Virus record (IMG/VR): IMGVR_UViG_3300028025_000006
Span: 1-36,349 of that record
DNA from: a virus
Taxonomy: Duplodnaviria; Caudoviricetes
DNA length: 36,349 nucleotides
Strand: one strand, 5' to 3'
Shown here: positions 2,617 to 33,651 of the stretch, piece after piece
How the letters are laid out: every line of letters begins with the position of its first letter
Numbering within the stretch: the stretch's first letter is position 1
Program-made: the position numbers and the translations under genes
The notes under the pieces: generated by a model
Told to the model about the DNA's origin: nothing
The model's database searches: none
Seen by the model: only the letters and a program-made list of their open reading frames with translations

Positions 2617-3576
2617 ATGAGCGAAAACATGACACCCTCTGAGGGTAGTGGACCGCTATCGGTGGATCAAGCCGCCGGAGCATTTTTAGGTTTAATGGGT
2701 GGTGAGGACTCGCAAGAGCAACCAGATACCGCTACTGAGAATCAAGAGGTGGTTCAGGAAGCAGATGAGTCGCAAGAGGTAAGCGATTCTGATGACGTTG
2801 AGTACCAAGAGGAAGTAGACGAGCAGCCGCGCTACAAGGTGAAAGCCTCAGGCGAAGAAATAGAGGTGACGCTCGATGACTTAATCAAAGGTTATCAACG
2901 TGAGGCAGACTACACAAAGAAAACCCAAACACTCGCAGAGCAGCGCAAACAGGTCGAATCTGAACGCGCAGTAATCGAGCAAGCAAAACAAGAGAGAGAT
3001 CAGTACCAGCAACGTCTTGCGGCAATTGAAGGCGCATTGCGCCAAGCGCCACAGGAAAATCTGGAAGCTCTTAAGGAAAACGATCCAATTGGTTATGCAG
3101 TTAAGGTAGCTGAACAAACTCAGCGTGAACGACAGTTACAGGCTATTGGTGCAGAACGCGCTCGCATTGCTGAACAGCAACAAGCAGAGCAAAGTCAGCA
3201 TCTCAGCCAGTTCCTAGCCGTGGAAGCGCAGAAGTTATCAGAGGCTATCCCTGAATATGCAGACCAGCAAAAGTCAGTACAAGTCAAAAAAGACATACGA
3301 GACTATGCTAGAAAGATTGGATGGTCAGATGAAGAACTAGCCAGCGTGTACGACTCTCGGGCTGTTCTTACGTTATATCGTGCAATGCAATACGAAAAGC
3401 TAATGAGCAACAAGGCAGGGGTTACGAAAAAGGTAGCCGAAGCGCCAAAGATGCTTAAAGCCGGAGTAGCTCGCAATACCGATCCTAACTCAGAACATAC
3501 CAAAAAGGCACAAGCACAGCTACGCAAGACCGGAAGGGTTGCGGATGCTGCTAACGTATTTGAACGATTCTTATAG
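2617..3576 (+). CDS. Capsid scaffolding protein
   Basis: Acidic N-terminus, YKVKASGEEIEVTLDDLIKGYQREADYTKKTQ motif and coiled coil; lies immediately upstream of the major capsid gene. Confidence 0.85.
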   Translation: MSENMTPSEGSGPLSVDQAAGAFLGLMGGEDSQEQPDTATENQEVVQEADESQEVSDSDDVEYQEEVDEQPRYKVKASGEEIEVTLDDLIKGYQREADYTKKTQTLAEQRKQVESERAVIEQAKQERDQYQQRLAAIEGALRQAPQENLEALKENDPIGYAVKVAEQTQRERQLQAIGAERARIAEQQQAEQSQHLSQFLAVEAQKLSEAIPEYADQQKSVQVKKDIRDYARKIGWSDEELASVYDSRAVLTLYRAMQYEKLMSNKAGVTKKVAEAPKMLKAGVARNTDPNSEHTKKAQAQLRKTGRVADAANVFERFL

Positions 3577-6533: not shown

Positions 6534-7499
6534 ATGGCAATTACAGTTAAACACGCAAAAGTTAGCGCCGTACCTGATGAGGGAGATGCTAGTCTTATTC
6601 GTCCAAGCGATTGGAATAGTGACCACACTCTCTTAGGTCTAGGAACAGCAGCAGAAAAAGACAATGGTGTAGCTAACGGTGTTGCCTCTCTCGATTCAGG
6701 CGGAACGGTTCCTTTATCACAACTTCCCGCATCTATTAAGGGAGGATTGGTCTTTAAGGGTACATGGAACGCAAGCACCAACACGCCTACATTAGCCTCA
6801 GGTGTCGGTACAGCCAATGATTATTATGTTGTGTCTGTCGCTGGTTCGACAAACCTAAACGGCATAACAACTTGGGCAGTCAATGATCTTGCGATTTATA
6901 ACGGAACGGCTTGGCAAAAAGTAAGCGCATCCAATCCTACGATCATTACCGCTAACTCTACCGATCCTGCATTACGAGTCACCCAGACAGGCACAGGCAA
7001 TGCTTTTGTTGTCGAGGATAGTACGACTCCTGATACAACGGCTTTTGTAATTGATAACGCGGGTAATGTCGCTACTGGTGGCACTCTTACTGTTGCGGGA
7101 AAACTTGCTGTAGACCAATCTGATGTTGGCACAGCGCCCAACAAGATTCCGCTTAATCAATTTCTTGGCAGCATGGCGTTTTTGGATGCAGACAATATTT
7201 CATTTTCTGCTACGGGTGCAAATACTGCGGCTCAAAACCTTGCGGTCAATAAACTGACTACGGTAACGATTTCTGCTGATACAACCTTGACTACAACTGT
7301 GCCTAAACTTAATTCAACCGCTTATGTGATTGTGATTACATCTGGCACGACTAGCAGAACGGTGACGTTTGGTACGGGTTTCAAATCAACAGGCACGCTT
7401 GCAACGGGTACAAGTGCAGATAGGCGTTTTGTGTTTCAGTTTATCTCGGATGGCACAAACCTTGTTGAGGTTTCTCGCACAGCCGCTATTACCTATTAA
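6534..7499 (+). CDS. Fibre-like virion protein
   Basis: Thr/Gly-rich mosaic containing NGVASLDSGG, FKGTWNASTNTPTL and GTAPNKIPLNQFLGSMAF segments typical of fibre proteins. Confidence 0.65.
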   Translation: MAITVKHAKVSAVPDEGDASLIRPSDWNSDHTLLGLGTAAEKDNGVANGVASLDSGGTVPLSQLPASIKGGLVFKGTWNASTNTPTLASGVGTANDYYVVSVAGSTNLNGITTWAVNDLAIYNGTAWQKVSASNPTIITANSTDPALRVTQTGTGNAFVVEDSTTPDTTAFVIDNAGNVATGGTLTVAGKLAVDQSDVGTAPNKIPLNQFLGSMAFLDADNISFSATGANTAAQNLAVNKLTTVTISADTTLTTTVPKLNSTAYVIVITSGTTSRTVTFGTGFKSTGTLATGTSADRRFVFQFISDGTNLVEVSRTAAITY

Positions 7500-21673: not shown

Positions 21674-21821
21674 GTTCACCCAAAGCACGCCCTGCAAAAC
21701 TTTGATAACGCTGCCACTTTGAAATAATTGCAGCATCTTCTGAGGCTGGAATCCATCCAAGCTCTCTCCATCGTTTTGTAATGCACGTTCCTGCTGGGGT
21801 GTATACATATTCATCATTCAT
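21639..21821 (-). CDS. Hypothetical protein (last gene of the leftward arm)
   Basis: 60-aa ORF MNDEYVYTPAGTCITKRWRELGWIPAS with a GGAG RBS, overlapping the upstream gene end. Confidence 0.65.
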   Translation of the reverse strand: MNDEYVYTPAGTCITKRWRELGWIPASEDAAIISKWQRYQSFAGRALGEPIEQTLVPLTT

Positions 21822-22173
21822 TTGATTCTCCGAGTTTGTTGGATAGTCGGCGGTGTGCCTCATCCAGATTGTTTTGGAACTTCCTTGGTGACATACGACT
21901 AAAGTGCGCTACATGGTTAATGTTGTGATACGGGAAACTTACATAACGCGCTTTTACTGCTACTCTTAATTCTTCTCTCAAGCTACATACAGCAGCCTCT
22001 ACTATGTCTGCGTCTAGGTAGTCTGGCAATATCTCGTCTGTTTCGTCATCATCCCACACAGCACCAGTTTCAGGTAAATAATTACGCTCGGCTGATCTGC
22101 AATGGGTATCTGGCATAGGACCTGTCTCACCTTGTATGGCTAAAGCCCAATTAAACAGACGATCTTTCAGCAT
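21814..22173 (-). CDS. Antiterminator Q-like or sigma-region-4-like late regulator
   Basis: RLFNWA N-terminus, DADIVEAAVCSL and a C-terminal HTH; sits at the end of a nin-like region. Confidence 0.6.
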   Translation of the reverse strand: MLKDRLFNWALAIQGETGPMPDTHCRSAERNYLPETGAVWDDDETDEILPDYLDADIVEAAVCSLREELRVAVKARYVSFPYHNINHVAHFSRMSPRKFQNNLDEAHRRLSNKLGESNE

Positions 22174-23834: not shown

Positions 23835-24094
23835 CTATTGTTAAATTCACAGGATGGTGGACTGACGCAAAGGTTGCAGATTGTGTCACTTTGTGTCGCG
23901 TTAACTTCTATTAGTTTGTCTAGGTAATGCCGAGCTTTTTCAAGATCACGCATACCGTTCTTTTCTTTGTACCTAGTAACATATTTGATAATATTTCCCT
24001 CTAGGTACCCCAAGCGATTCATAGTTATGTAATCCCACGGTTGGATTGGTTTTTGATAGTGCTCTCCGTCTACTTGCTTGTCGTTTGCGCTCAT
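23810..24094 (-). CDS. DUF3310 (SaV / T7 gp1.7-like) protein
   Basis: QVDGEHY...GYLEGNIIKYVTRYKEKNGMRDLEKARHYL; ATGA-coupled start at 24094. Confidence 0.88.
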   Translation of the reverse strand: MSANDKQVDGEHYQKPIQPWDYITMNRLGYLEGNIIKYVTRYKEKNGMRDLEKARHYLDKLIEVNATQSDTICNLCVSPPSCEFNNRCQKGLTR

Positions 24095-24234
24095 GATGCT
24101 AGTTTCCATAGTCCAATCTGGCTAAACGCATAACCAGCCCATACCATGCCTGTAGGCATATTGCCTTTATAAAATTGCTCAATACTCACACATAGATATG
24201 CTATTCCGGTTGCAGCGATTAGCCAGCCACTCAT
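24091..24234 (-). CDS. 47-aa two-helix membrane protein (not in the ORF track)
   Basis: MSGWLIAATGIAYLCVSIEQFYKGNMPTGMVWAGYAFSQIGLWKLAS; ATGA overlaps at both ends. Confidence 0.75.
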   Translation of the reverse strand: MSGWLIAATGIAYLCVSIEQFYKGNMPTGMVWAGYAFSQIGLWKLAS

Positions 24235-24374
24235 TTTGGTTTCCTTGCGTAGGGTGATTGATTACGTAGCTCTTTGCAGATGGTGCATCGCCAGCGTTTA
24301 ATCTTGTTTCTGACGATGTACTCACCCTCTGTAGGCTTGCGGTACTGGTTGCAATTACTACAGAATTTATCCAT
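24231..24374 (-). CDS. 47-aa zinc-ribbon protein (not in the ORF track)
   Basis: MDKFCSNCNQYRKPTEGEYIVRNKIKRWRCTICKELRNQSPYARKPK, CxxC...CxxC; coupled start and stop. Confidence 0.75.
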   Translation of the reverse strand: MDKFCSNCNQYRKPTEGEYIVRNKIKRWRCTICKELRNQSPYARKPK

Positions 24375-24628
24375 CAAAACGGTGCCGACTCCATGTCAGC
24401 CATGCTGGGAGCTTGCTTGCGTGGCGCTTGGGCAAAATCATCTTTTGGCTTTGGCTCAAACAGGCTAAACCAGCCATCCCCCCCAACAGGCATAGTTTCT
24501 AGCTTTAGCGCTAACCCGCCAGTTTTGGTGGACATAACAACACCACACTTAACCCAGCGTTTCTTTTCCTGACCGTTCTTGTCTGTGTACGATCCGGTAC
24601 TAGCCATGACTTCGTATTGGATACTCAT
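24374..24628 (-). CDS. Minimal single-stranded DNA-binding-like protein
   Basis: Beta-rich YTDKNGQEKKRW core with an SSB-like C-terminal tail (DMESAPF); follows the exonuclease and annealase. Confidence 0.6.
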   Translation of the reverse strand: MSIQYEVMASTGSYTDKNGQEKKRWVKCGVVMSTKTGGLALKLETMPVGGDGWFSLFEPKPKDDFAQAPRKQAPSMADMESAPF

Positions 24629-25230
24629 TTCGTTCTTTCCTTTAAGCCGCTAACGGCGCTATTTACTTCGTTTAAAAACTCCTGCACTACACTTTCCATC
24701 TTGCTGATGTATTTATTATCCCGATCTAGCCGGACAATAAATAACTGTAGACCATCCGGCAGCCGTGGGTCAAAACTTACAAAGTCGCACCATTTGCGTC
24801 CGGTAACTGCCATCTGGCATTGCATCTGGTTGACATATTTAGCGGGTGCTTTGTCCTGCCGGATATAGTCTATGTGTGTAGATGTGTTGGGACACTTGAT
24901 CTCAATTAGCCCATCCTCACCTACATAACCGTCTGGTGAGCATCCAAACATTTGTATCGTAGGATGGTCAACGAAAGCTATTTGCTCCACTAATGAGCCA
25001 GTTTTGACCTCGTACTCTATTCTTGCTTGCGCCTCATGGTCTACACCCCATTGCATCGCAGCATTGGTAAAAGACTCCGTTTTTACGCTGGTTAACCGTT
25101 CTGCAATTAGGTCAGCCATGTAGTTTTGGTAAGCGGCTGTTGTGGTCTTAGCCATGACATCCGACACGCGGGAGGCTGTCACCTTCCCGGCGCGGAGTGC
25201 AAACCATTCTGGTGAGCCTTGTTCAATCAT
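24625..25230 (-). CDS. YqaJ / lambda-exonuclease family protein
   Basis: QGSPEWFALRAGKVTAS, MQWG, CSPDG, IEIKCP and QMQCQM motifs. Confidence 0.93.
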   Translation of the reverse strand: MIEQGSPEWFALRAGKVTASRVSDVMAKTTTAAYQNYMADLIAERLTSVKTESFTNAAMQWGVDHEAQARIEYEVKTGSLVEQIAFVDHPTIQMFGCSPDGYVGEDGLIEIKCPNTSTHIDYIRQDKAPAKYVNQMQCQMAVTGRKWCDFVSFDPRLPDGLQLFIVRLDRDNKYISKMESVVQEFLNEVNSAVSGLKERTK

Positions 25231-25771
25231 TTGTAGCCGCCATGAGTTCAGTTTTACGCGCCTCTTTAGCTACGTTTAGTTTGGCAAACGCCTCTTTGTC
25301 ATCCTTAAACAGTTTGTATGCAGCGTTAAACTGAGTCTTTAAGGTTTCAATATCGCGTGACTCCTTGATACCTTTAAGTGCTACTTCTACGTCTGCACCA
25401 GAGGAGCTATCAATATCGTCATGCTCTACGATTTCAAGCGCTGTCACCCACAGGTAGCGGCGGATGTATGTTTGTACTGCCCCAAGGTTTTGCACAGCGT
25501 GGCAGCCCTTTAACGCAGCCTCAGACATAGGACTTGTGATCTCAATCTTGCTCAAGTCGCTCATGTCTACAATTGTGAGCGTAGCCAGATCATTTGTGTA
25601 GCTGATGGTGCCGCACAAGCCCAGACCGTTAAAGATGTTTTGGATTGCAGGGATAAAGTCACCTAGCTCAAAGTATTTGTACCCGGCAAACTTGTTGTGA
25701 CCGGACTTTGACAGGGCTGTGTTTTGCAAGTCAATACGCGCTTGCATAAGTTTTTTGTAGACATTCATCAC
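25223..25771 (-). CDS. erf: ERF-family single-strand annealing protein
   Basis: KSGHNKFAGYKYFEL and QNLGAVQTYIRRY...DDID motifs. Confidence 0.88.
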   Translation of the reverse strand: MMNVYKKLMQARIDLQNTALSKSGHNKFAGYKYFELGDFIPAIQNIFNGLGLCGTISYTNDLATLTIVDMSDLSKIEITSPMSEAALKGCHAVQNLGAVQTYIRRYLWVTALEIVEHDDIDSSSGADVEVALKGIKESRDIETLKTQFNAAYKLFKDDKEAFAKLNVAKEARKTELMAATND

Positions 25772-25986
25772 ATATTCCTCGATGCTTTGTAAACGTGAGC
25801 CTCAATCTTGTCTAGCAATGTGCAGACAACTGGATCAGGGCTGTAATAGTTTTCGGAAACTGTTTTAAGCAAATCCATAATAAAATGCTTGTCAGTCATG
25901 TGATTTTCCCAAAACTCTTTGTCTGCTACAGGATACTCACCATCAACAAAGGCTTGGACAATACGGCTGTTGGTTTCGAGGTTCAT
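25768..25986 (-). CDS. Hypothetical protein
   Basis: 72-aa ORF with a GGAG RBS and ATGA coupling. Confidence 0.65.
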   Translation of the reverse strand: MNLETNSRIVQAFVDGEYPVADKEFWENHMTDKHFIMDLLKTVSENYYSPDPVVCTLLDKIEAHVYKASRNM

Positions 25987-26069
25987 AACAACTCCAATAC
26001 TAAAATTGCGCCAGCGGCAAAAGAGGAAATTGCGTACAGTACCGCGTCATAGATTTCTATTGTTTTCAT
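25983..26069 (-). CDS. 28-aa single-TM peptide, first gene of the recombination operon (not in the ORF track)
   Basis: MKTIEIYDAVLYAISSFAAGAILVLELL; CCAAGGA RBS and ATGA overlap with the next gene. Confidence 0.6.
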   Translation of the reverse strand: MKTIEIYDAVLYAISSFAAGAILVLELL

Positions 26070-26095
26070 GTTGTGTCCTTGGTTACAGAGACTCT

Positions 26096-26141
26096 ATTGT
26101 GCTTATTTGCACACATTATTTATATAGGTACTTTCCCTAAT
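26096..26141 (-). promoter_or_regulatory. Leftward promoter with a TAGG-N7-CCTA palindromic site
   Basis: ATAGGTACTTTCCCTAAT (26124-26141) is 16/18 identical to 29415-29432; a -10-like CACAAT on the minus strand begins 31 nt from the palindrome centre. Confidence 0.65.
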
Positions 26142-26144
26142 TGA

Positions 26145-26453
26145 CTAAAACTCAAACTCCTTCATTTCGTAACGTCCTTTAGCGTTTTTAAACCATCCTT
26201 GTACAAGCACTCTCCATCCAGAACGCAGCATTTCGGGAAAAGCCTCGGATGCCTCAATCTTTTTAATCCTGCTGGACATGTTGGACTTACTGGTGACTTG
26301 TACCGCTACAGTCTCTCCGTTACCGATACACAACAAGTCTATACATCCGTATAGATCATGTCTGCGCTTGGTGAAGTAGTTGTAATGATCGCAATTAGCT
26401 ACTTGATAGCCGAGAGATTTCATAAGAGTAATCGAGCGCTGGCTTGGTGTCAT
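26145..26453 (-). CDS. PD-(D/E)XK nuclease, Holliday-junction-resolvase-like
   Basis: LMKSLGYQV...DLYGCIDLLCI...VAVQVT pattern of small restriction-endonuclease-fold phage proteins. Confidence 0.65.
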   Translation of the reverse strand: MTPSQRSITLMKSLGYQVANCDHYNYFTKRRHDLYGCIDLLCIGNGETVAVQVTSKSNMSSRIKKIEASEAFPEMLRSGWRVLVQGWFKNAKGRYEMKEFEF

Positions 26454-26991
26454 TTCGTTTTCCTATAAGAACTGGTTGCTCTTTGTACTGGATACCCGCC
26501 ACGCTGTTTTGTTGGGCTGCTATGCCTGTTAACTGCGTAGGTGCGTCTACTGGCTGTCCTGTCGTTTTAATGCCTCTGTAGCGTGTTTGAAACTCTTTAG
26601 CCACAAAAGCCCATTCATCCTCTTTCTTGTTGCCAAGCGCTACCCAGCCGCCCATGTCATAAATAACCTTGTGAATAATCGGATCGGCAAATTGAACGCT
26701 GCGGTATGTGCCTACGGTTCTTACAGCATTGTCTACGGCTGACCATGCCTCCAAAGCAGTATCAATAGTGGTACCGCCAATAAGTTTTACTACGTCTGCT
26801 GGCTTAGGTAGAAACTGACCGTTATCAGGGTTAAGCAAATGTCTTGCAAGCGCATCTTTTACAGCTTTTAAGTCGTACTGGCGCAGAGACTCAAACCAAA
26901 TGCGTAACAACATAGGGCTAACTTCCTTGTTGTATACGGCAAACATACCGCCCATAAATTGAGCAAATTCTTTTTTATCTTCGTCAACCAT
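26395..26991 (-). CDS. DUF6475-like protein, probable helicase loader (lambda P position)
   Basis: IWFESLRQY...HL...FLPKPAD N-domain and A.EAW..V...V.F.DP.IH.VI..MGGW C-domain; directly downstream of the initiator-like gene. Confidence 0.7.
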   Translation of the reverse strand: MVDEDKKEFAQFMGGMFAVYNKEVSPMLLRIWFESLRQYDLKAVKDALARHLLNPDNGQFLPKPADVVKLIGGTTIDTALEAWSAVDNAVRTVGTYRSVQFADPIIHKVIYDMGGWVALGNKKEDEWAFVAKEFQTRYRGIKTTGQPVDAPTQLTGIAAQQNSVAGIQYKEQPVLIGKRNDTKPALDYSYEISRLSSS

Positions 26992-27415
26992 TTATAAATG
27001 CCTCCGCAGCTTGTCTATTGGATGCCTCAAGAGCTTGTTGCTTGCTTGCCTTATGTTGTACCCACTCAGCTTTAAAACTTGTCCAGCCTCTTGTACAAGT
27101 CTCTGCTAGTGCGTTCTCTAGTGTCCACATTGCTAGGTTTGCTTGGGTCTTAATGTTTTGCAGGGCTGACTCTGTTAATGGTGCCTTTTTGGATGCCCTA
27201 AGTTTACAAAAGTCATCCCACACTTGGTCTGATACCTCGTCTGGTTTTTGCACGCCAGAGGTACGCTTTACAACGGTTTTAGGCTTATCCATGCCTTGCT
27301 CGATGTAGTACAAGACTTGTGATCCAAGTGTGCGGTGGTTGGCTGCTGCGTGTGTGGCAATTAACTTACGCAATTCGGCAGGAAGTCGGATAGAAATTGT
27401 TGCGTCTTTAGTCAT
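26984..27415 (-). CDS. Arc-like ribbon-helix-helix domain fused to a replication-initiator C-terminal-like domain
   Basis: N-terminal ISIRLPAELRKLIATHAAANHRTLGSQVLYYIE (RHH); C-terminal PDEVSDQVWDDFCKLRASKKAPLT...RGWTSFKAEW. Confidence 0.7.
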   Translation of the reverse strand: MTKDATISIRLPAELRKLIATHAAANHRTLGSQVLYYIEQGMDKPKTVVKRTSGVQKPDEVSDQVWDDFCKLRASKKAPLTESALQNIKTQANLAMWTLENALAETCTRGWTSFKAEWVQHKASKQQALEASNRQAAEAFING

Positions 27416-27794
27416 GTGCGGCTCTCATTTTTGATAATTGTCTACGGGTTAGTGTCTGGGTGAATACGCTACTGTTTCGTAAAGATACAAGTTTTTCGTA
27501 TGAGCGCTTTGATCGCTCTGGCAAAGTAAAGGGTTTGATCTTGCACGATTTGTCTTGCTTGTCTCCCAGAGAATATATAGGACGAATATAAGTTCTGCCT
27601 GATATTGTGTGCCTTGTGTGTCCAGATATGTATATACGTTTGGATATACGCTTGCTAGAACGGTTAAGGCGAGACAGTACGCTGGCAACCCTGTCATGCG
27701 TCAAATTAAGTCTGCGACATATCTCTGCCTTAGTAAGCGGCTCCTGCTCAAGCAACAGCAGGATACGGTCTGTAGTGTTACCCCAAGCAATCAT
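27408..27794 (-). CDS. Winged-helix DNA-binding protein
   Basis: PLTKAEICRRLNLTHDRVASVLSRL HTH; AGGAGG RBS before the ATG at 27794. Confidence 0.7.
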   Translation of the reverse strand: MIAWGNTTDRILLLLEQEPLTKAEICRRLNLTHDRVASVLSRLNRSSKRISKRIYISGHTRHTISGRTYIRPIYSLGDKQDKSCKIKPFTLPERSKRSYEKLVSLRNSSVFTQTLTRRQLSKMRAAHD

Positions 27795-27970
27795 CCTACC
27801 TCCTTTATTAGTTTGCACATTTTGCTCCAAGCATCGTCCCATTCGTGCGCGTCATCTGCGTAACCAAGTTCTTTAGCTGCCGCCACTAGACGCTGATTAA
27901 GGTCTGTCAATCGCTTAATCTCATCAATCAACGGCTGCTGAGTTACATCAAACAAGTCTGGCTGTGTCAT
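27791..27970 (-). CDS. Hypothetical coiled-coil protein
   Basis: MTQPDLFD...; AAGGAG RBS and ATGA coupling. Confidence 0.65.
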   Translation of the reverse strand: MTQPDLFDVTQQPLIDEIKRLTDLNQRLVAAAKELGYADDAHEWDDAWSKMCKLIKEVG

Positions 27971-28059
27971 ACCATTCTCCTTGTAGGTAGCACAACTATT
28001 AAGCGTCCGTAAACTACACGCAATGTGTGTCTGTACCAACTTGCTCCGTATCCGCTCAT
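27967..28059 (-). CDS. 30-aa basic peptide (not in the ORF track)
   Basis: MSGYGASWYRHTLRVVYGRLIVVLPTRRMV; AAGGAG RBS and ATGA overlaps on both sides. Confidence 0.5.
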   Translation of the reverse strand: MSGYGASWYRHTLRVVYGRLIVVLPTRRMV

Positions 28060-28451
28060 GTGTTTTTGCTCCTTAATTTTTCTATCACTCTATGAAAATC
28101 AGACAAGTAAACTTCATCAATCGGACTGCCAACAACTTGTGCTATTTCATCATCCGTCAGCCCGACCCATTCTTTGCGTGGTGTTGGTAACGAGTTTTTA
28201 CCTCTTGGCTCTTGCGCTAACGCCCAGTCGAGCCATTGTTCTGCGGTCAAGTTATAGTAGTTATCACAACCAACGCTTGACAATTCCTCGCCAAGTCGAA
28301 TAGCTGCACTACGCCACGCCACAGGCTCTTGCTTCTCCTGTGCGAGTGCTTGTTTCAACCCGACAATTGCATCAAATTGTTTTTTCTGTGGATACATTGA
28401 ATCTTCCAACGCCTCCAAAGCCATCTCTGCTGCTTTGCGTAAGTCATCCAT
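28056..28451 (-). CDS. Hypothetical protein with a WxGLT C-terminal module
   Basis: MDDLRKAAEMALEALE...QEPVAW...EWVGLTDDEI; AAGGAG RBS. Confidence 0.75.
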   Translation of the reverse strand: MDDLRKAAEMALEALEDSMYPQKKQFDAIVGLKQALAQEKQEPVAWRSAAIRLGEELSSVGCDNYYNLTAEQWLDWALAQEPRGKNSLPTPRKEWVGLTDDEIAQVVGSPIDEVYLSDFHRVIEKLRSKNT

Positions 28452-28560
28452 TGTTTCTCTCCTTAAGTTTAGCTTCGACATTACGAAAGTCAGACAAGTA
28501 AACTTCATCAATCGGACTGCCAACCGTTTGTGCTATCTCCTCATCCGTCAGCCCGATCCA
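28099..28560. repeat. Direct repeat of about 70 bp (28099-28169 and 28490-28560) with a 35-bp exact core
   Basis: TCAGACAAGTAAACTTCATCAATCGGACTGCCAAC at 28099-28133 and 28490-28524; a degenerate third copy lies near 28720-28742. Confidence 0.92.
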
Positions 28561-28638
28561 CTCACGTTCAAACTTTTCTTCCATAACTTGGCGTAAGACT
28601 TTCTCTATTATTTCACCCGTTTTAGCTAAGTTAGTCAT
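28444..28638 (-). CDS. Hypothetical protein with a WxGLT C-terminal module
   Basis: MTNLAKTGE...EWIGLTDEEI...EAKLKERN; AAGGAG RBS. Confidence 0.72.
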   Translation of the reverse strand: MTNLAKTGEIIEKVLRQVMEEKFEREWIGLTDEEIAQTVGSPIDEVYLSDFRNVEAKLKERNNG

Positions 28639-28901
28639 GTGTTGCGCTCCTTTAGCTTGGCTTCGATAGCTTGAACGCATTGTTTAAAAGTTGATGTTTT
28701 GTTTGCAATTTTTGTTATTTCATCCTCCGTCAGACCGACCCAAGGCTTTTTGTATTCCTGTATATCATCATCAACCGTCAACCCACCAGACCTATGCGCC
28801 ATGTCGGATGTGTCCCAAGGCTCATGTATAGATATGTCTGTTTTAGGTACACATTGTTCGGATATGTCTAAATTTTGTTGTTTCGTGTACATATCGCTCA
28901 T
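28635..28901 (-). CDS. Hypothetical protein with a WxGLT C-terminal module
   Basis: ...PWVGLTEDEI...AIEAKLKERNT; GGAGG RBS. Confidence 0.72.
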   Translation of the reverse strand: MSDMYTKQQNLDISEQCVPKTDISIHEPWDTSDMAHRSGGLTVDDDIQEYKKPWVGLTEDEITKIANKTSTFKQCVQAIEAKLKERNT

Positions 28902-29140
28902 ATTGCCTCCGCTATCTGTTGCTCAATCTGGGTGCGGATAGAATCTGTCAGCTTACGCTCCAGCCATACAGCACGTTTGCCACGCATATCTAATATCTCG
29001 TAGTCAAACTCTACATAGCCGTGGTAATCCAAGTTTGATACTTCGTTTTGCATAAAGCTGCCAGACTGCCTGTAAACGTGGGTTACGCCTACCTTAGCGG
29101 GTATTCCTGCTATGCGTGTGGTGATGATCTCTTGATACAT
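28898..29140 (-). CDS. Conserved hypothetical early protein
   Basis: TRIAGIPAKVGV...YEILDMRGKRAVWLERKLT; CCAAGGAGA RBS. Confidence 0.75.
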   Translation of the reverse strand: MYQEIITTRIAGIPAKVGVTHVYRQSGSFMQNEVSNLDYHGYVEFDYEILDMRGKRAVWLERKLTDSIRTQIEQQIAEAI

Positions 29141-29155
29141 GGTTTCTCCTTGGTA

Positions 29156-29169
29156 GGGGCTTGCGCCCC
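29156..29169 (-). promoter_or_regulatory. GNRA-tetraloop hairpin between the first two early genes
   Basis: Minus strand GGGGC-GCAA-GCCCC just 5' of the RBS; no U-tract. Confidence 0.55.
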
Positions 29170-29175
29170 AAGGTT

Positions 29176-29349
29176 TTATTTACGAGTCTCAATAACCAAA
29201 GTCGGGAGCAAACTTTGAGCATAAGCAACTGCATCTGATTTTTTGTAAAAGTTTGCAGATTCGTCATAAGGTGTGTTTTCTTCATTATAAGAAGTTACAT
29301 ACCAACATTTGTAAGACTTATCAAACCAAACTTCTATTTTTGCAATCAT
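29176..29349 (-). CDS. 57-aa first early protein (not in the ORF track)
   Basis: MIAKIEVWFDKSYKCWYVTSYNEENTPYDESANFYKKSDAVAYAQSLLPTLVIETRK; CCAAGGAGA RBS. Confidence 0.78.
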   Translation of the reverse strand: MIAKIEVWFDKSYKCWYVTSYNEENTPYDESANFYKKSDAVAYAQSLLPTLVIETRK

Positions 29350-29387
29350 TTTTATCTCCTTGGTATGGCGTTAGTGCCATGTACTAA

Positions 29388-29459
29388 ATTGTATACATTT
29401 CAGCACAAATAAACATAGGTGTTTTCCCTAATATGTGCAAATAATTTATTGTGTATAAT
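29388..29459. promoter_or_regulatory. Divergent promoter pair flanking a central TAGG-N7-CCTA palindrome
   Basis: Minus-strand TACAAT at 29393-29388, plus-strand TATAAT at 29454-29459, palindrome centred at 29423; this is the strand-switch point of the genome. Confidence 0.75.
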
Positions 29460-29465
29460 TAACTT

Positions 29466-29565
29466 GTTGGTGTGGAAGCCGATTTAGACCGTTTAAGTCT
29501 GTGTCTTGCCCCTTTGGGGGTCTTCCACCAAGATGCAGATTTAAGCGGTTTTTGCATCTACCAAC
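29466..29565 (+). promoter_or_regulatory. Structured leader RNA with mutually exclusive terminator and antiterminator folds
   Basis: 21-bp stem 29488-29508/29529-29549 (4 G-U pairs) with a U-run; alternative pairings 29466-71/29560-65, 29472-78/29522-28 and 29531-39/29551-59. Confidence 0.7.
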
Positions 29566-29750
29566 CGCCAAGTTGTCGGGTTAATAGACGGCAGGACTTG
29601 GGGATAGCCTCTACTGTGGGATAAGGTATGAGAAAGAGGCAAGGGTGGCGAAGCTAGCGCCCAATACCGAACGGCTGGCGGGTTCTGTGGCTCCGAAAAG
29701 CAAACAGATTAAGGCGCACCTAGGTAAGGCTAGGTTCGTCCACCAAAAAG
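29566..29750 (+). ncRNA. Candidate multi-hairpin non-coding RNA
   Basis: GC-rich stretch without a credible gene, with five consecutive stems (29568-601, 29607-640, 29643-662, 29684-708, 29713-740); G-U pairs favour the + strand. Confidence 0.55.
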
Positions 29751-30055
29751 CAAATGTAGTAACAATACATACTAATAAATATAAATAAGTATATAGACAA
29801 TCCTGATCGGTAATAAACAGTACAACCGTATGGATAATTGTTAAAAACATACCGTTCGGTAAAGAATCTTTACAATCGTTAGGATTATTGTGTTACTGTT
29901 TACATGTGGGGCTGGGCTTTAGCAACCTAGTAGTATCGAGTGGTATACGCAGACCTAAGTTCCTTGGCAGGCACTTGCACTCTTTGCCACTCATGTTTAA
30001 TTTTCTAATTGGAAAATCCTGCTTTATGGAAACCCACAACTTATTTGGAGACAAG

Positions 30056-30202
30056 ATGTATAAAGGATTTAGCTTGCACAGCGTAGTGTCCAGACCTCAC
30101 TCTATGTCTATTCTGGAAAAGCCTAGTTTGATTGGTGGACACCATATAGAGTCTATCTATGCAAAAAAACCACAACCTATTGTGGACAAGAAGAAAAAGT
30201 AG
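30056..30202 (+). CDS. 48-aa basic hypothetical protein
   Basis: GGAG RBS before ATG 30056; MYKGFSLHSVVSRPHSMSILEKPSLIGG...KKKK. Confidence 0.6.
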   Translation: MYKGFSLHSVVSRPHSMSILEKPSLIGGHHIESIYAKKPQPIVDKKKK

Positions 30203-30207
30203 TAACA

Positions 30208-30285
30208 TTTGCGTGGGGAAGTGTTCTCCGCACTTTCTTGGATGTCTCCTTGGTTCTTTGCCCGATTGATTTCGGGCTTTTTTTT
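30208..30285 (+). ncRNA. Candidate anti-Shine-Dalgarno small RNA
   Basis: 5' hairpin, unpaired GAUGUCUCCUUGGUU seed, then a strong intrinsic terminator. Confidence 0.55.
30260..30285 (+). terminator. Intrinsic terminator
   Basis: GCCCGA-TTGATT-TCGGGC followed by T8. Confidence 0.88.
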
Positions 30286-30294
30286 GGTGATAAC

Positions 30295-30942
30295 GTGATC
30301 CCGAAAAAACTCCACATAGTGTGGATTGGTGACGAGTCTAAGCGCCCAGATAACTGCATAAATACATGGATCAAGATGAATCCTGATTATGTGGTCAAGG
30401 TCTGGGGCAATGATGACCTATACAGCCATAGCTGGGTCAATGGTCGGCACATGTCCGAGTATTGGGACAGAGAGTTGTGTGGCGTAGCCGACATGATGCG
30501 CTGGGAAATCCTGTATGACGAGGGTGGTATTGCATTGGATGCTGATTGCATCTGCAAGCGCCCACTAGAGGATTGGTTGCTAGAGGCAAGCGTATTTGCT
30601 GGATGGGAGTCTGAACTGGATAGATTCGGTCTGATTGCCAACAGCACAGTAGGCGCAGAGCCGGGCAATCCGTTTATCGGTCAGATCATCCAAGACATTA
30701 AAGACGATAAGATAGATCAGCGTATGGCGTGGGAATTCTGCGGTCCTGTACGGATTACTCAGACATGGCTAAATAATCGCTACACAGGGCTTACAATCCA
30801 TCCTAGCCACTACTTTTTGCCTAGGCACTTTGCTGGCACAACATATACCGGAAATGGGATAGTGTTTGCAGACCAGATGTGGGGCAGCACTCGTAGCATC
30901 TACAATCATCTACATGAGCAAGCGATAGAGGAGCGTGAATAA
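30295..30942 (+). CDS. DXD sugar-binding glycosyltransferase (GT32/Och1-like)
   Basis: IPKKLHIVWIG, ADMMRWEILYDEGGIALDAD and CGP motifs; probable GTG start at 30295. Confidence 0.88.
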   Translation: MIPKKLHIVWIGDESKRPDNCINTWIKMNPDYVVKVWGNDDLYSHSWVNGRHMSEYWDRELCGVADMMRWEILYDEGGIALDADCICKRPLEDWLLEASVFAGWESELDRFGLIANSTVGAEPGNPFIGQIIQDIKDDKIDQRMAWEFCGPVRITQTWLNNRYTGLTIHPSHYFLPRHFAGTTYTGNGIVFADQMWGSTRSIYNHLHEQAIEERE

Positions 30943-31094
30943 TGCCTTCAGTCTCAAAAGCACAAGCGCAGTTTATGAAAGCTGCCGCACACTCACCTAA
31001 GTTTGCCAAGCAAGCTGGCATCCCAGTTAAGGTCGCTAAAGAATTTATGGCTGCTGACAAAAAGGCAGGAAAATACACAAAGGGTAAAAAATGA
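30942..31094 (+). CDS. 50-aa Lys/Ala-rich protein (not in the ORF track)
   Basis: MPSVSKAQAQFMKAAAHSPKFAKQAGIPVKVAKEFMAADKKAGKYTKGKK; GAGGAG RBS and TAATG coupling. Confidence 0.8.
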   Translation: MPSVSKAQAQFMKAAAHSPKFAKQAGIPVKVAKEFMAADKKAGKYTKGKK

Positions 31095-31234
31095 AGATGC
31101 AAGGGAAGGCACAAGGCAAGTGTACCGATAGCGGTATGCGCGTTAAGCAAGCACAAATGGCTGCTGCTGCCAAGAAAATGAAAAATGGCGATTACCCCAA
31201 GCAGCTAAAGAAAGAGGAACGGGGCTACGAATGA
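31091..31234 (+). CDS. 47-aa basic protein (not in the ORF track)
   Basis: MKMQGKAQGKCTDSGMRVKQAQMAAAAKKMKNGDYPKQLKKEERGYE; ATGA overlaps at both ends. Confidence 0.7.
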   Translation: MKMQGKAQGKCTDSGMRVKQAQMAAAAKKMKNGDYPKQLKKEERGYE

Positions 31235-31710
31235 AATGCCCAGCCTCTACTCAAGACGTTAAACTCAATCTTAAAAATCGTGATTGGGCGTTTAAGAATG
31301 TAGGCTATGGTCCTGCTAATCCAGAGGAAGAATCACCTATATTTTGGGCTGATCGTGCTAAAGAATGGAATACCACAGAGGACGAGGCTAAGACAATGCG
31401 CTGCGGTAACTGCGCGGCTTTTATTGTCACGCCGGAAATGTTGGACTGTATCGTTGGTGGGCTTGGCTCTGGAACGGGTGGAGACGAGTACGAGGCGATT
31501 GTAGACGCTGCTGATCTTGGCTACTGTGAACTGTTTGAGTTCAAGTGTGCCGGAGAGCGTACCTGTTCTGCATGGCTGATGGGTGGTCCAATTAAAAAAA
31601 TTCCTACTAAGCGCCAGAAAGAAATGCTGGCAATGGCTAAGATGGAATACGAGAAGGCAGAGGATCGCTACGAAAGTTTAGAGAAATCTATAGAGGGTGA
31701 TGATGACTAA
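31231..31710 (+). CDS. Cys-rich metal-binding protein with HiPIP-like cysteine spacing
   Basis: CGNCAAF...GYCELFEFKC...TCSAW. Confidence 0.65.
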   Translation: MKCPASTQDVKLNLKNRDWAFKNVGYGPANPEEESPIFWADRAKEWNTTEDEAKTMRCGNCAAFIVTPEMLDCIVGGLGSGTGGDEYEAIVDAADLGYCELFEFKCAGERTCSAWLMGGPIKKIPTKRQKEMLAMAKMEYEKAEDRYESLEKSIEGDDD

Positions 31711-31849
31711 AGGACTGTACGCCAATATTAACGCCAAGCAAAAGCGCATTAAAGAAGGCTCAGGCGAGAAAATGAACAAGGTTGGTAGCAAGGCAGCACC
31801 TAGCGCCAAAGACTTTAAGACAGCCGCTAAAACGGCTAAGAAAAAATGA
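31703..31849 (+). CDS. 48-aa Lys-rich protein (not in the ORF track)
   Basis: MTKGLYANINAKQKRIKEGSGEKMNKVGSKAAPSAKDFKTAAKTAKKK; ATGA overlap with the next gene. Confidence 0.8.
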   Translation: MTKGLYANINAKQKRIKEGSGEKMNKVGSKAAPSAKDFKTAAKTAKKK

Positions 31850-32097
31850 TTAAGCGCGGAAAGGAAACTTTCTCAGGATTTAACAAGCCTAAGAAAACTC
31901 CTAGTCATCCTACTAAGTCACACGCTGTGTTGGCTAAGAGTGGGGATGAGACAAAACTTATCCGCTTTGGTCAACAGGGTGTAAAGGGTAGTCCAGAAGG
32001 CTCTGCCCGTAATGAATCATTTAAAGCCAGACACGCGCAGAACATTGCCAAGGGCAAGATGAGCGCAGCGTTCTGGGCTAACAAGGTAAAGTGGTAA
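31846..32097 (+). CDS. Conserved basic phage protein
   Basis: KLIRFGQQG...SFKARH...KMSAAFWANKVKW motif. Confidence 0.78.
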   Translation: MIKRGKETFSGFNKPKKTPSHPTKSHAVLAKSGDETKLIRFGQQGVKGSPEGSARNESFKARHAQNIAKGKMSAAFWANKVKW

Positions 32098-32133
32098 TGC
32101 GTTTGCATTACTTTTGCACACATTAGGTGGATT

Positions 32134-33651
32134 ATGGCTAAAGGACTGCTGACAGATGAGGAGGAATTGCGGAGATTTAACGCAATAGAATCTCAAGCGC
32201 AGCCTTGGTATGCCAGAGCGTTACCTATGGAAGGCAGGGCTACATTCCTGCCGTTTCGGGATAGTATGCCCGGCTCTGTGTTTAACCAGAGAGAGTTAGC
32301 TGTGCCGGGGCTGATTGCCGAGGCTGCTAACGCTATTACTGCTCCCGCTAGATCATTGCTAGGTACAGACCCAGAGTTTGAAGCTGGCAAGGAAGGCGTA
32401 AACATGGCATTTAACGTCATGGGAGGCGGGTTGGGAACAAGTAAGGCTATGCGTAACCCTACAGGTCAGGGTGGTGTTGATCTAGCGATGAACGCCTATC
32501 ACGGCTCTCCGTATGACATTAAAGGTGGTTTTGACATACAGCGCATTGGTACTGGCGAAGGCGCTCAGGTATATGGACACGGTATGTATTTTGCTGAGTC
32601 TAGACCTACAGCACAAAGTTTTGCTGATGCGTTAAAAAACAAAGGCTTTAATTTTAAAGCTGAAGAAGAAAGGCTTGGTTTTGAATTGCCAGCGTCAGCG
32701 CGTGGTCAATTTATGATGTTGGCGCAAGATATGCCTAAAGACCCAATCAAGGCTGCTGGGTGGATACAGTCTGGTAACATTGCCGCTAGGGATATACCTA
32801 AAGAAAAGATTGCAGACTTGTTTCGCGCTTATCAAGAAAAAACGCAAGGCAATTTATACAAGGTTGATATACCTGATGCATCATTACCTATGATGCTTGA
32901 TTGGGATAAGCCTTTATCAAAACAGTCTCCAGAAGTCTTAAGCATTTTAAAAAATAATTCTGCTGTAATGGGTGATTTAAAAGGCGATAAAACTTTAAAT
33001 AATTTAACTGGTAAAGACGCTTATTTGGCTATTGCATCTAGTTTTGATGTTGGTCAAAAAGATGCGTTTAAATTAGCGTCTGAATTTTTAAACCAACAAG
33101 GCATACCCGGAGTGAGATATGCGGATGATGGTAGGCGCGGAGCAAAACCCGGTGAAAGTAATTTTGTAGTTTTTGACCCATCTATAGTTAAAATGCTAGA
33201 AAAAAATGATATACCAGTAGATAAATTACTAGAAGAAGGTTTGTTAGGAACAAATAGTAATAAAAAAGTTAATTTTGGTGTTTCTAAATCAGACGCATCT
33301 GATATTTTCGGGAAAGGTTCTGAAAGAATTAAATATACAGACCCTAATAGCGGTGGCTATATTGACATTCTTGCTAGACCAGATGGGACTGCCTCTGTTT
33401 TATCGCTAGAAGTGCCAAAAGAATTTAGAGGTTCTGGCGTAGGCAAGAGCTTGCAAGACCAAGCGATGATTGATTTTCCTGTATTACAAGGTCAGGTATC
33501 GTCAAAAGCTGCTGCTACTAACGCTTATAAATTAGGCAGAAGACCAGTAGGTAAACCAAACGCTACACTAGATGAAGTGTTAAGAATGATAGATGAAGAT
33601 TCATCTGTTAATTTGGTAACTGTTAAAATGCAAGGATTACTAGGGAACTAA
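32134..33651 (+). CDS. Polyvalent-type protein with an ADP-ribosyltransferase-like domain and a C-terminal GNAT domain
   Basis: AYHGS...FD...IGTGEGAQVYGHGMYFAE...GNLYKVDI...GIPGVRY...NFVVFDP (ART-like); LEVPKEFRGSGVGKSL (GNAT acetyl-CoA motif A). Confidence 0.7.
   Translation: MAKGLLTDEEELRRFNAIESQAQPWYARALPMEGRATFLPFRDSMPGSVFNQRELAVPGLIAEAANAITAPARSLLGTDPEFEAGKEGVNMAFNVMGGGLGTSKAMRNPTGQGGVDLAMNAYHGSPYDIKGGFDIQRIGTGEGAQVYGHGMYFAESRPTAQSFADALKNKGFNFKAEEERLGFELPASARGQFMMLAQDMPKDPIKAAGWIQSGNIAARDIPKEKIADLFRAYQEKTQGNLYKVDIPDASLPMMLDWDKPLSKQSPEVLSILKNNSAVMGDLKGDKTLNNLTGKDAYLAIASSFDVGQKDAFKLASEFLNQQGIPGVRYADDGRRGAKPGESNFVVFDPSIVKMLEKNDIPVDKLLEEGLLGTNSNKKVNFGVSKSDASDIFGKGSERIKYTDPNSGGYIDILARPDGTASVLSLEVPKEFRGSGVGKSLQDQAMIDFPVLQGQVSSKAAATNAYKLGRRPVGKPNATLDEVLRMIDEDSSVNLVTVKMQGLLGN

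Follow-up and report, generated by a model that had tools for sequence, protein, structure and literature searches.

Late-leader RNAs have long been regarded as by-products of antitermination, and c4, a phage antisense RNA that is not a late leader, represses phage mRNA in trans through short complementary stretches and controls the icd-ant antirepressor operon in lysogeny. The closest precedents for the locus described here are StxS and the lambda 6S RNA. StxS, from Shiga-toxin lambdoid phages, is a terminated late leader with proven sRNA activity: the excerpts of its description available to us report pairing, including at a ribosome-binding site, through a seed common to host sRNAs, and showed that a late leader can regulate host genes (PMC7547250). 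The lambda 6S RNA, made from pR′, is presented in the part of the preprint at hand as a 194-nt, Hfq-bound RNA with no known role, whose ligation partners include one lambda early-operon RNA and which is unlike StxS in sequence (bioRxiv 10.1101/2024.10.31.621285). Toxic, or double-hairpin, sRNAs share the shape of the unit studied here, judging from excerpts of four reports (PMC4603805, PMC5688073, PMC10117139, PMC11722255). A review of phage RNAs lists c4 (RF01695; phages P1 and P7, about 77 nt), sar, OOP and aQ, and its accessible portion yielded no late leader aimed at early ribosome-binding sites (PMC12197685); our literature search found no account of the present phage RNA family or of the RF02932 motif.

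The window, that is, the whole 36,349-nucleotide stretch of DNA analysed here, represents a phage genome that is complete and circular, 36,222 bp long, with ends that overlap by 127 nt and direct terminal repeats. Its late arm runs rightward from 30295 and encodes terminase, portal, capsid, tail and lysis genes; the leftward arm carries an O-like initiator and Erf-like and exonuclease genes. Searches of the 66 window proteins against PHROGs returned no integrase or CI family match and no antirepressor or Icd match. The nearest capsid relatives of the phage are uncultured, and we infer a betaproteobacterial host because the window holds an RF02932 motif and because of the kin of the seed described below. 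This Betaproteobacteria-1 RNA motif (29566-29683, plus strand, 99.7 bits) lies within the divergent control region, flanked by the first early promoter and a 48-aa ORF, and a 20-nt piece of it has matches in 46 viral contigs. A further conserved non-coding stretch (29900-30040, plus strand), without an Rfam match, lies 5′ of the same ORF; a 20-nt part of it (30018-30037) has matches in 14 viral contigs from both close groups of relatives, and the conserved blocks upstream of this part may fold as another structured RNA. Three neighbouring early ORFs (28061-28172, 28452-28563 and 28706-28742) have in common a repeated coding block, 79-86% alike, which we regard as a shuffled module of small genes, and the product of 26984-27415 (minus strand) fuses an N-terminal Arc-like ribbon-helix-helix domain to an O-like replication initiator region, making it a candidate regulator of the early promoters.

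Comparison among relatives confirmed 30213-30285 as a conserved cassette of putative promoter, predicted hairpin, seed and terminator that heads the whole late arm, and this is very probably a genuine RNA cassette, likely to make a short terminated late leader of about 72 nt.

30056-30202, plus strand: 48-aa basic ORF (38 homologues), whose last codons carry the promoter, which overlaps its 3′ end
30180-30208, plus strand: putative sigma70-like promoter (-35 at 30180-30185, 17-nt spacer, -10 at 30203-30208)
30213-30239, plus strand: 5′ hairpin of the predicted RNA, whose start is placed at about 30213-30215
30245-30258, plus strand: seed, an anti-Shine-Dalgarno core and extension, then a U-rich run ahead of the terminator
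30260-30285, plus strand: intrinsic terminator (tR′-like), stem 30260-30277 and U-tail
30295-30942, plus strand: DXD glycosyltransferase (PF04488), first gene of the late arm, starting 10 nt past the terminator

The sequence-only reading had proposed an sRNA whose seed lies between a 5′ hairpin and a strong terminator, and folding agrees with it: the 78-nt stretch 30208-30285 folds into these two elements (z = -2.9), and the stem at 30260-30277 with its U-tail is the top entry of the terminator list for 24000-33000. The same reading took the seed to be unpaired, which holds for the five closest relatives, where it is predicted to be fully open, but not for the window, where it is partly engaged in a weak predicted stem (predicted unpaired probability of 0.05-0.2 for letters 30247-30249). 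The terminator stem shows compensating changes on both sides of 2 of its 6 pairs, and 86.7% of its alignment cells are paired, versus 28-64% in slid controls. The 5′ hairpin is predicted in groups 1, 2, 4 and 5, with differing 3′ arms, and is absent from group 3; its 5′ arm is invariant at 8 of 12 positions between groups 1 and 2, and the hairpin is missing from the consensus fold of alignment A5 because the 3′ arms are unaligned between groups. The promoter has 7 of the 12 consensus letters, which puts it under the scanner's cut-off; across the family, a -10 box was recognized by eye in 20 members, with the first three letters of the -35 box exactly 17 nt 5′ of it in 15 of them.

Relatives were collected through the neighbouring 48-aa ORF (no Pfam or PHROG match), the seed playing no part in the search. 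Conservation of the seed, on which the earlier proposal hinged, was borne out: among 34 loci, two of which were excluded as ending too early, the seed is unchanged in 32 of the 32 that cover it (20 distinct sequences, one being the window's own), while the stems drift with compensation. In alignment A2, which covers the two closest groups, all 14 seed columns are invariant, compared with 4 of 20 columns just 5′ of the seed, 6 of 18 terminator columns and 0 of 8 past the terminator. Four further, more distant groups (66-82% marker identity) were reached through a second anchor, the 102-aa gene, for which 80 of 333 matches were kept. No 48-aa ORF was found next to 10 of the 14 units; the conserved -10 and -35 boxes and this persistence without the ORF indicate that the unit is its own transcription cassette, and therefore that a late-operon leader is likelier than the 3′UTR-derived RNA suggested earlier. 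Given the promoter, a pure 3′UTR origin is not needed, and transcriptional read-in from upstream may occur. Seven sequencing runs contained a small share of the region, one of them certainly an RNA run; among four of these that were assembled against it, the RNA run had no contig across the unit, and the other three are probably DNA. In 9 of the 14 cases a large terminase gene on the same strand follows the unit at a distance of 1.8-3.9 kb, and in 2 more a glycosyltransferase gene lies directly 3′; of the remainder, 2 contigs stop within 500 nt and one (L167) gave no match. In the close relatives, the glycosyltransferase corresponding to 30295-30942, which also scores weakly on a related glycosyltransferase-fold family, is present or absent with the RNA unit unaltered either way.

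Several candidates were set aside. An opposite-strand gene using the seed as its ribosome-binding site has a start codon in 4 group-1 genomes (12 nt away, opening a frame of 13-18 aa) and in none of the 10 others. The model match in the complete relative G410 falls in coding sequence, and those in L220, L030 and L173 each mirror the ribosome-binding site of a gene at that locus; no unit was detectable in G410 or in the GenBank relatives MW202462 and MW202710, and a scan of 42 other Betaproteobacteria-1 loci with model R1 gave no convincing family member. Six loci (L193, L214, L223, L224, L228 and L232) carry a second sRNA-like unit distinct from the family studied here, with a near-consensus promoter, a CU-rich stretch and a strong terminator within about 60 nt, on the strand opposite to the early genes and 1.1-4.6 kb 5′ of the 102-aa gene. 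A prophage-type contig with a Betaproteobacteria-1 motif (L005) has, some 800 nt downstream of that motif (about 6790-6845), an anti-Shine-Dalgarno stretch with another seed, followed by a terminator.

The copies of the seed reported for the window were all found: the 10-mer at 30245-30254 occurs exactly three times, always on the plus strand (29145, 29355 and 30245), with a 9-mer copy at 26076 and an 8-mer copy at 27976, and each copy outside the unit is the mirror of a leftward gene's Shine-Dalgarno region (gene starts 29140, 29349, 26069 and 27970). Pairing of 30241-30258 with 64 hand-picked start regions of the window (26 leftward, 38 rightward) placed the three sites highlighted by the sequence-only reading (starts 29349, 29140 and 26069) as the best three of the 64.

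29355-29364, minus strand: ribosome-binding site predicted as a target, belonging to gene 29176-29349, which stands first behind the first early promoter; 10 contiguous nt, -19.4 kcal/mol, rank 1 of 64
29145-29154, minus strand: predicted target ribosome-binding site of gene 28898-29140 (YuA gp49-like, Pfam PF20788); 10 nt, -17.0 kcal/mol, rank 2 of 64
26076-26084, minus strand: predicted main target ribosome-binding site, gene 25983-26069; 9 nt, -16.0 kcal/mol, rank 3 of 64
27976-27983, minus strand: ribosome-binding site of gene 27791-27970, predicted as a weaker target; 8 nt, energy -13.1, energy rank 8 of 64

Of the 26 leftward starts, 4 show a match of at least 8 contiguous nucleotides, and of the 38 rightward ones 0 do (Fisher p = 0.024); at 9 nt the counts are 3 of 26 and 0 of 38 (p = 0.062); start 22173, which lies outside the 64-region list, has a 3-nt match only. 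Among 72,410 18-nt windows, 19 match at least 3 of the 64 start regions over at least 9 nt, and these comprise 9 at the 29140 site, 9 at the late-leader element and 1 elsewhere. When the generic anti-Shine-Dalgarno core was kept and its flanks randomized, 1,006 of 50,000 trials (2%) did as well, so that the in-genome complementarity signal is modest on its own. In two complete relatives, G004 with 66 starts and G005 with 73, the same genes top the pairing list. Pairing in groups 1 and 2 spans 9-11 nt, leaving the last 3-4 invariant seed letters without a phage partner, and in two of the four genomes of group 2 the match at the first-promoter gene is limited to 6-7 nt. The late-leader RNA probably pairs with the start sites of phage early genes.

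The predicted main target opens the recombination operon, and similar boxes stand ahead of it and of gene 29176-29349.

25983-26069, minus strand: gene for a 28-aa hydrophobic peptide, first behind the second early promoter; it opens the recombination operon and is followed there by the Erf-like and exonuclease genes
26124-26141, no strand assigned: operator-like palindromic box of the second early promoter (repeat family D16), 72 nt before the start of the 28-aa gene
29415-29432, no strand assigned: operator-like box belonging to the first early promoter, 83 nt upstream of start 29349

A hydrophobic peptide gene occupies the same place in five of the six groups (25-28 aa, GRAVY 1.3-1.8, best 19-residue window 2.1-2.5), and group 3 has a 62-aa gene there. 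The 28-aa peptide has no family match in Pfam or PHROGs, and its gene has the position that cIII or kil takes in lambdoid phages. In most relatives the palindromic box recurs ahead of each of the two early promoters, its distance being fixed, and for the one at 26124-26141 the best match, with 0-6 mismatches, starts 70-74 nt upstream of the gene in 14 of 15 genomes; the box is likely to be a binding site for a phage or host regulator.

We next asked how each RNA's open region pairs with the start region at the 28-aa-gene position across 15 genomes in six groups. Own pairs averaged -16.7 versus -13.5 kcal/mol, which is rank 2 among the 720 permutations of the groups, and rank 1-2 among 120 when any single group is left out; these ranks overstate independence because the groups share ancestry. 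L222 and L177, which are single-genome groups (5 and 6), had been noticed by eye before the test, and the rank without both is 2 of 24. In L222 the seed has changed and so has the site, and together they make 15 pairs interrupted by a 2-nt bulge (-21.5); this site averages -8 to -10.6 with the RNAs of other groups; in L177, two seed letters and the two site letters facing them changed together; in L214, seed-site pairing extends to 16 pairs. The control at the first gene behind the first promoter shows no own-genome preference (rank 293 of 720), and further controls rank 66 of 720 for the next gene and 29 of 120 for the 102-aa gene (13 genomes). The co-variation of seed and early ribosome-binding sites that the earlier proposal called for is therefore found at the 26076 site but not at the first-promoter site. 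Among held-out loci, the changed seed of MW202481 matches a small leftward early gene best (11 nt), 4 of its top 5 among 65 annotated starts being small leftward genes, and the window's seed also pairs over 8-10 nt with three small early genes of MW202481; L227, L237, L176 and L221 reach 7-8 nt only, within partial contigs. L291, a host locus with a similar start region, was rejected as a phage relative, having no tblastx match. Type I toxin-antitoxin systems are recognized by a small hydrophobic peptide, such as the 28-aa gene encodes, and by long antisense pairing dedicated to the toxin mRNA; pairing between the 28-aa gene and the RNA amounts to 9-16 pairs and is common to other early genes too. 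The groups provide natural matched and mismatched RNA-target pairs.

Control of read-through into the late arm may lie with a protein encoded at the other end of the early arm.

21814-22173, minus strand: candidate Q-like antiterminator, 119 aa, with an N-terminal helix and a sigma-region-4-like helix-turn-helix

This protein has a PF06530 cluster as an Atlas neighbour (0.95), and it has a weak likeness to the annotated Q of MW202481 (24% identity, E 2e-4). None of 26 members of its family has a PF06530 match in Pfam, and the fold matches listed for its predicted structure (pLDDT 82) are to sigma region 4 only, with none at E<=0.001 and no solved Q structure among them. In MW202481 the annotated Q gene ends 34 nt before the homologous unit, and in L227 a Q-like homologue lies about 440 nt upstream of the unit. 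By these comparisons the product of 21814-22173 is a likely candidate for a Q antiterminator, and we lean towards its governing the late leader, with somewhat less assurance than we attach to the pairing.

We propose a terminated late-leader RNA that would lower early translation by base pairing, with a Q-like protein allowing read-through into the late arm, a reading to which we assign a probability of roughly 0.55. Host RNA polymerase would fire the promoter at 30180-30208 from the onset of infection and halt at 30285, so that the 72-nt RNA builds up as the lambda 6S RNA and StxS do at pR′, perhaps with the use of Hfq. Its seed would cover the Shine-Dalgarno sequence of the 28-aa gene that opens the recombination operon, the main and co-evolving target, as well as those of the first genes behind the other early promoter, leading to less early translation. 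Once enough of the Q-like protein, encoded at the end of the early arm, had accumulated, polymerase would be able to continue past the terminator into the virion genes. The outcome would be a delayed brake on early proteins, made of a by-product of late-gene control.

The strongest competing explanation, which we consider improbable, is that the RNA is mainly a host-directed anti-Shine-Dalgarno regulator, a captured or convergent toxic or double-hairpin sRNA that dampens host transporter and metabolic genes, with the phage matches being secondary. Its appeal comes from the kin of the seed: 8 of 27 genome matches to seed plus U-tail are units on Cupriavidus chromosomes in which the identical 16 nt precede a terminator, and the four tested score 33-40 bits on the phage model; of the other matches, one has a hairpin and the rest look like chance. 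The identity of this 16-nt seed in Cupriavidus chromosomes indicates host targets as well, the 3′ end of the invariant stretch is unaccounted for by phage sites, and the best sub-threshold Rfam match of the phage unit is RF02278, a family whose toxic-type members cover many host ribosome-binding sites in the excerpts available (PMC5688073, PMC11722255). Against a mainly host-directed role, the seed changes along with the phage site, the exact unit occurs in 1 of 401 Burkholderiales genomes searched, and the extended site, present in 2 of 26 leftward phage genes, precedes few host start codons (median 3, range 0-7, in 39 small Burkholderiales genomes; 11 in G001). Host targets are plausible but few at the extended-site match length. 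The Cupriavidus units (L101, L108, L113, L115, L118, L119, L122 and L123, about 3001-3043) fall below every Rfam cut-off in the three scanned and are possibly an undescribed toxic-sRNA paralogue; one of them scores 27.6 bits on RF02278, under the cut-off, beside true members. The seed, with a terminator, also occurs in L106 (3001-3066, minus strand; 32.6 bits on model R1), filed as Candidatus Sungbacteria, which is either chance or a misbinned phage piece.

Less probable still is a late-operon attenuator alone, with the ribosome-binding-site match put to no regulatory use and the conserved letters serving as signals for pausing, antiterminator loading or RNA stability. The unit's position at the head of the late arm, the conserved 5′ arm and the A-rich promoter spacer, which could be loading signals, and the 2% of random-flank trials that equal the RNA's result are all compatible with it. 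This explanation does not account for the seed's tracking of a site 2.5-4.5 kb distant in L222, L177 and L214, or for group 3 having dropped the 5′ hairpin and kept the seed. We regard as doubtful the remaining proposal, in which the RNA in an infected or carrier cell blocks the first genes of an incoming related phage (immunity or superinfection exclusion), a role with precedents in c4 and STnc6030 in the accessible part of the review (PMC12197685) and in line with the lack of CI and integrase matches among the 66 proteins (PHROGs) and with a first-promoter site that is family-wide, the RNAs of five of the six groups pairing across groups about as well as within them, since there is no sign of a lysogenic or carrier state and own-genome tuning at the second site fits self-regulation better; it is compatible with the late-leader model rather than exclusive of it.

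The proposed late-leader brake can be placed against the described RNAs with which it shares features. The likeness to betaproteobacterial toxic sRNAs drawn in the sequence-only reading extends to the layout of hairpin, anti-Shine-Dalgarno stretch and terminator and stops short of family membership: the unit scores 21.6 bits (E 0.11) on RF02278, whose cut-off is 50 and whose true Cupriavidus members score 53-72 bits. According to the portions of the sources at hand, it resembles RF02278 in having two hairpins, a CU-rich anti-Shine-Dalgarno stretch, a U-rich run, a terminator and a similar length, and differs in being phage-borne and operon-heading, with one seed tuned to phage sites where RF02278-type sRNAs carry tandem seeds for many host genes (PMC5688073, PMC11722255). 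With c4 it shares a small size, a phage origin and predicted trans pairing to phage mRNA; a scan with RF01695 gave no match at the cut-off in the window and none at E<=10 in 29300-30400.

The unit at the head of the late arm resembles the pR′/6S/tR′ layout of lambda, and it has in common with both StxS and lambda 6S a sigma70 promoter, of presumed activity here, and an intrinsic terminator directly ahead of the late genes. Lambda 6S is likewise a late-leader RNA; it stands under Q antitermination, for which the Q-like protein is a candidate in our case, and no anti-Shine-Dalgarno seed is described for it in the available part of the preprint, the two RNAs being compared by description (bioRxiv 10.1101/2024.10.31.621285). 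StxS matches the present unit as a short late-promoter RNA with a terminator ahead of late genes, in base pairing (predicted here) that includes a ribosome-binding site, and in a seed that host sRNAs also carry; the excerpted account describes it as cut from a longer leader in lysogens, with promoter and terminator 258 nt apart, and as targeting host rpoS and stx1B (PMC7547250). Unlike StxS, the leader itself is about 72 nt here, the phage has no integrase or CI match, the predicted targets are its own first early genes, and seed and site co-vary. The unit would be a compact late leader whose seed appears to co-evolve with the phage's own early ribosome-binding site. If true, late-gene control would be tied directly to early-gene shut-down without a repressor protein, and late-leader RNAs such as lambda 6S could have a general role as early-to-late switches.
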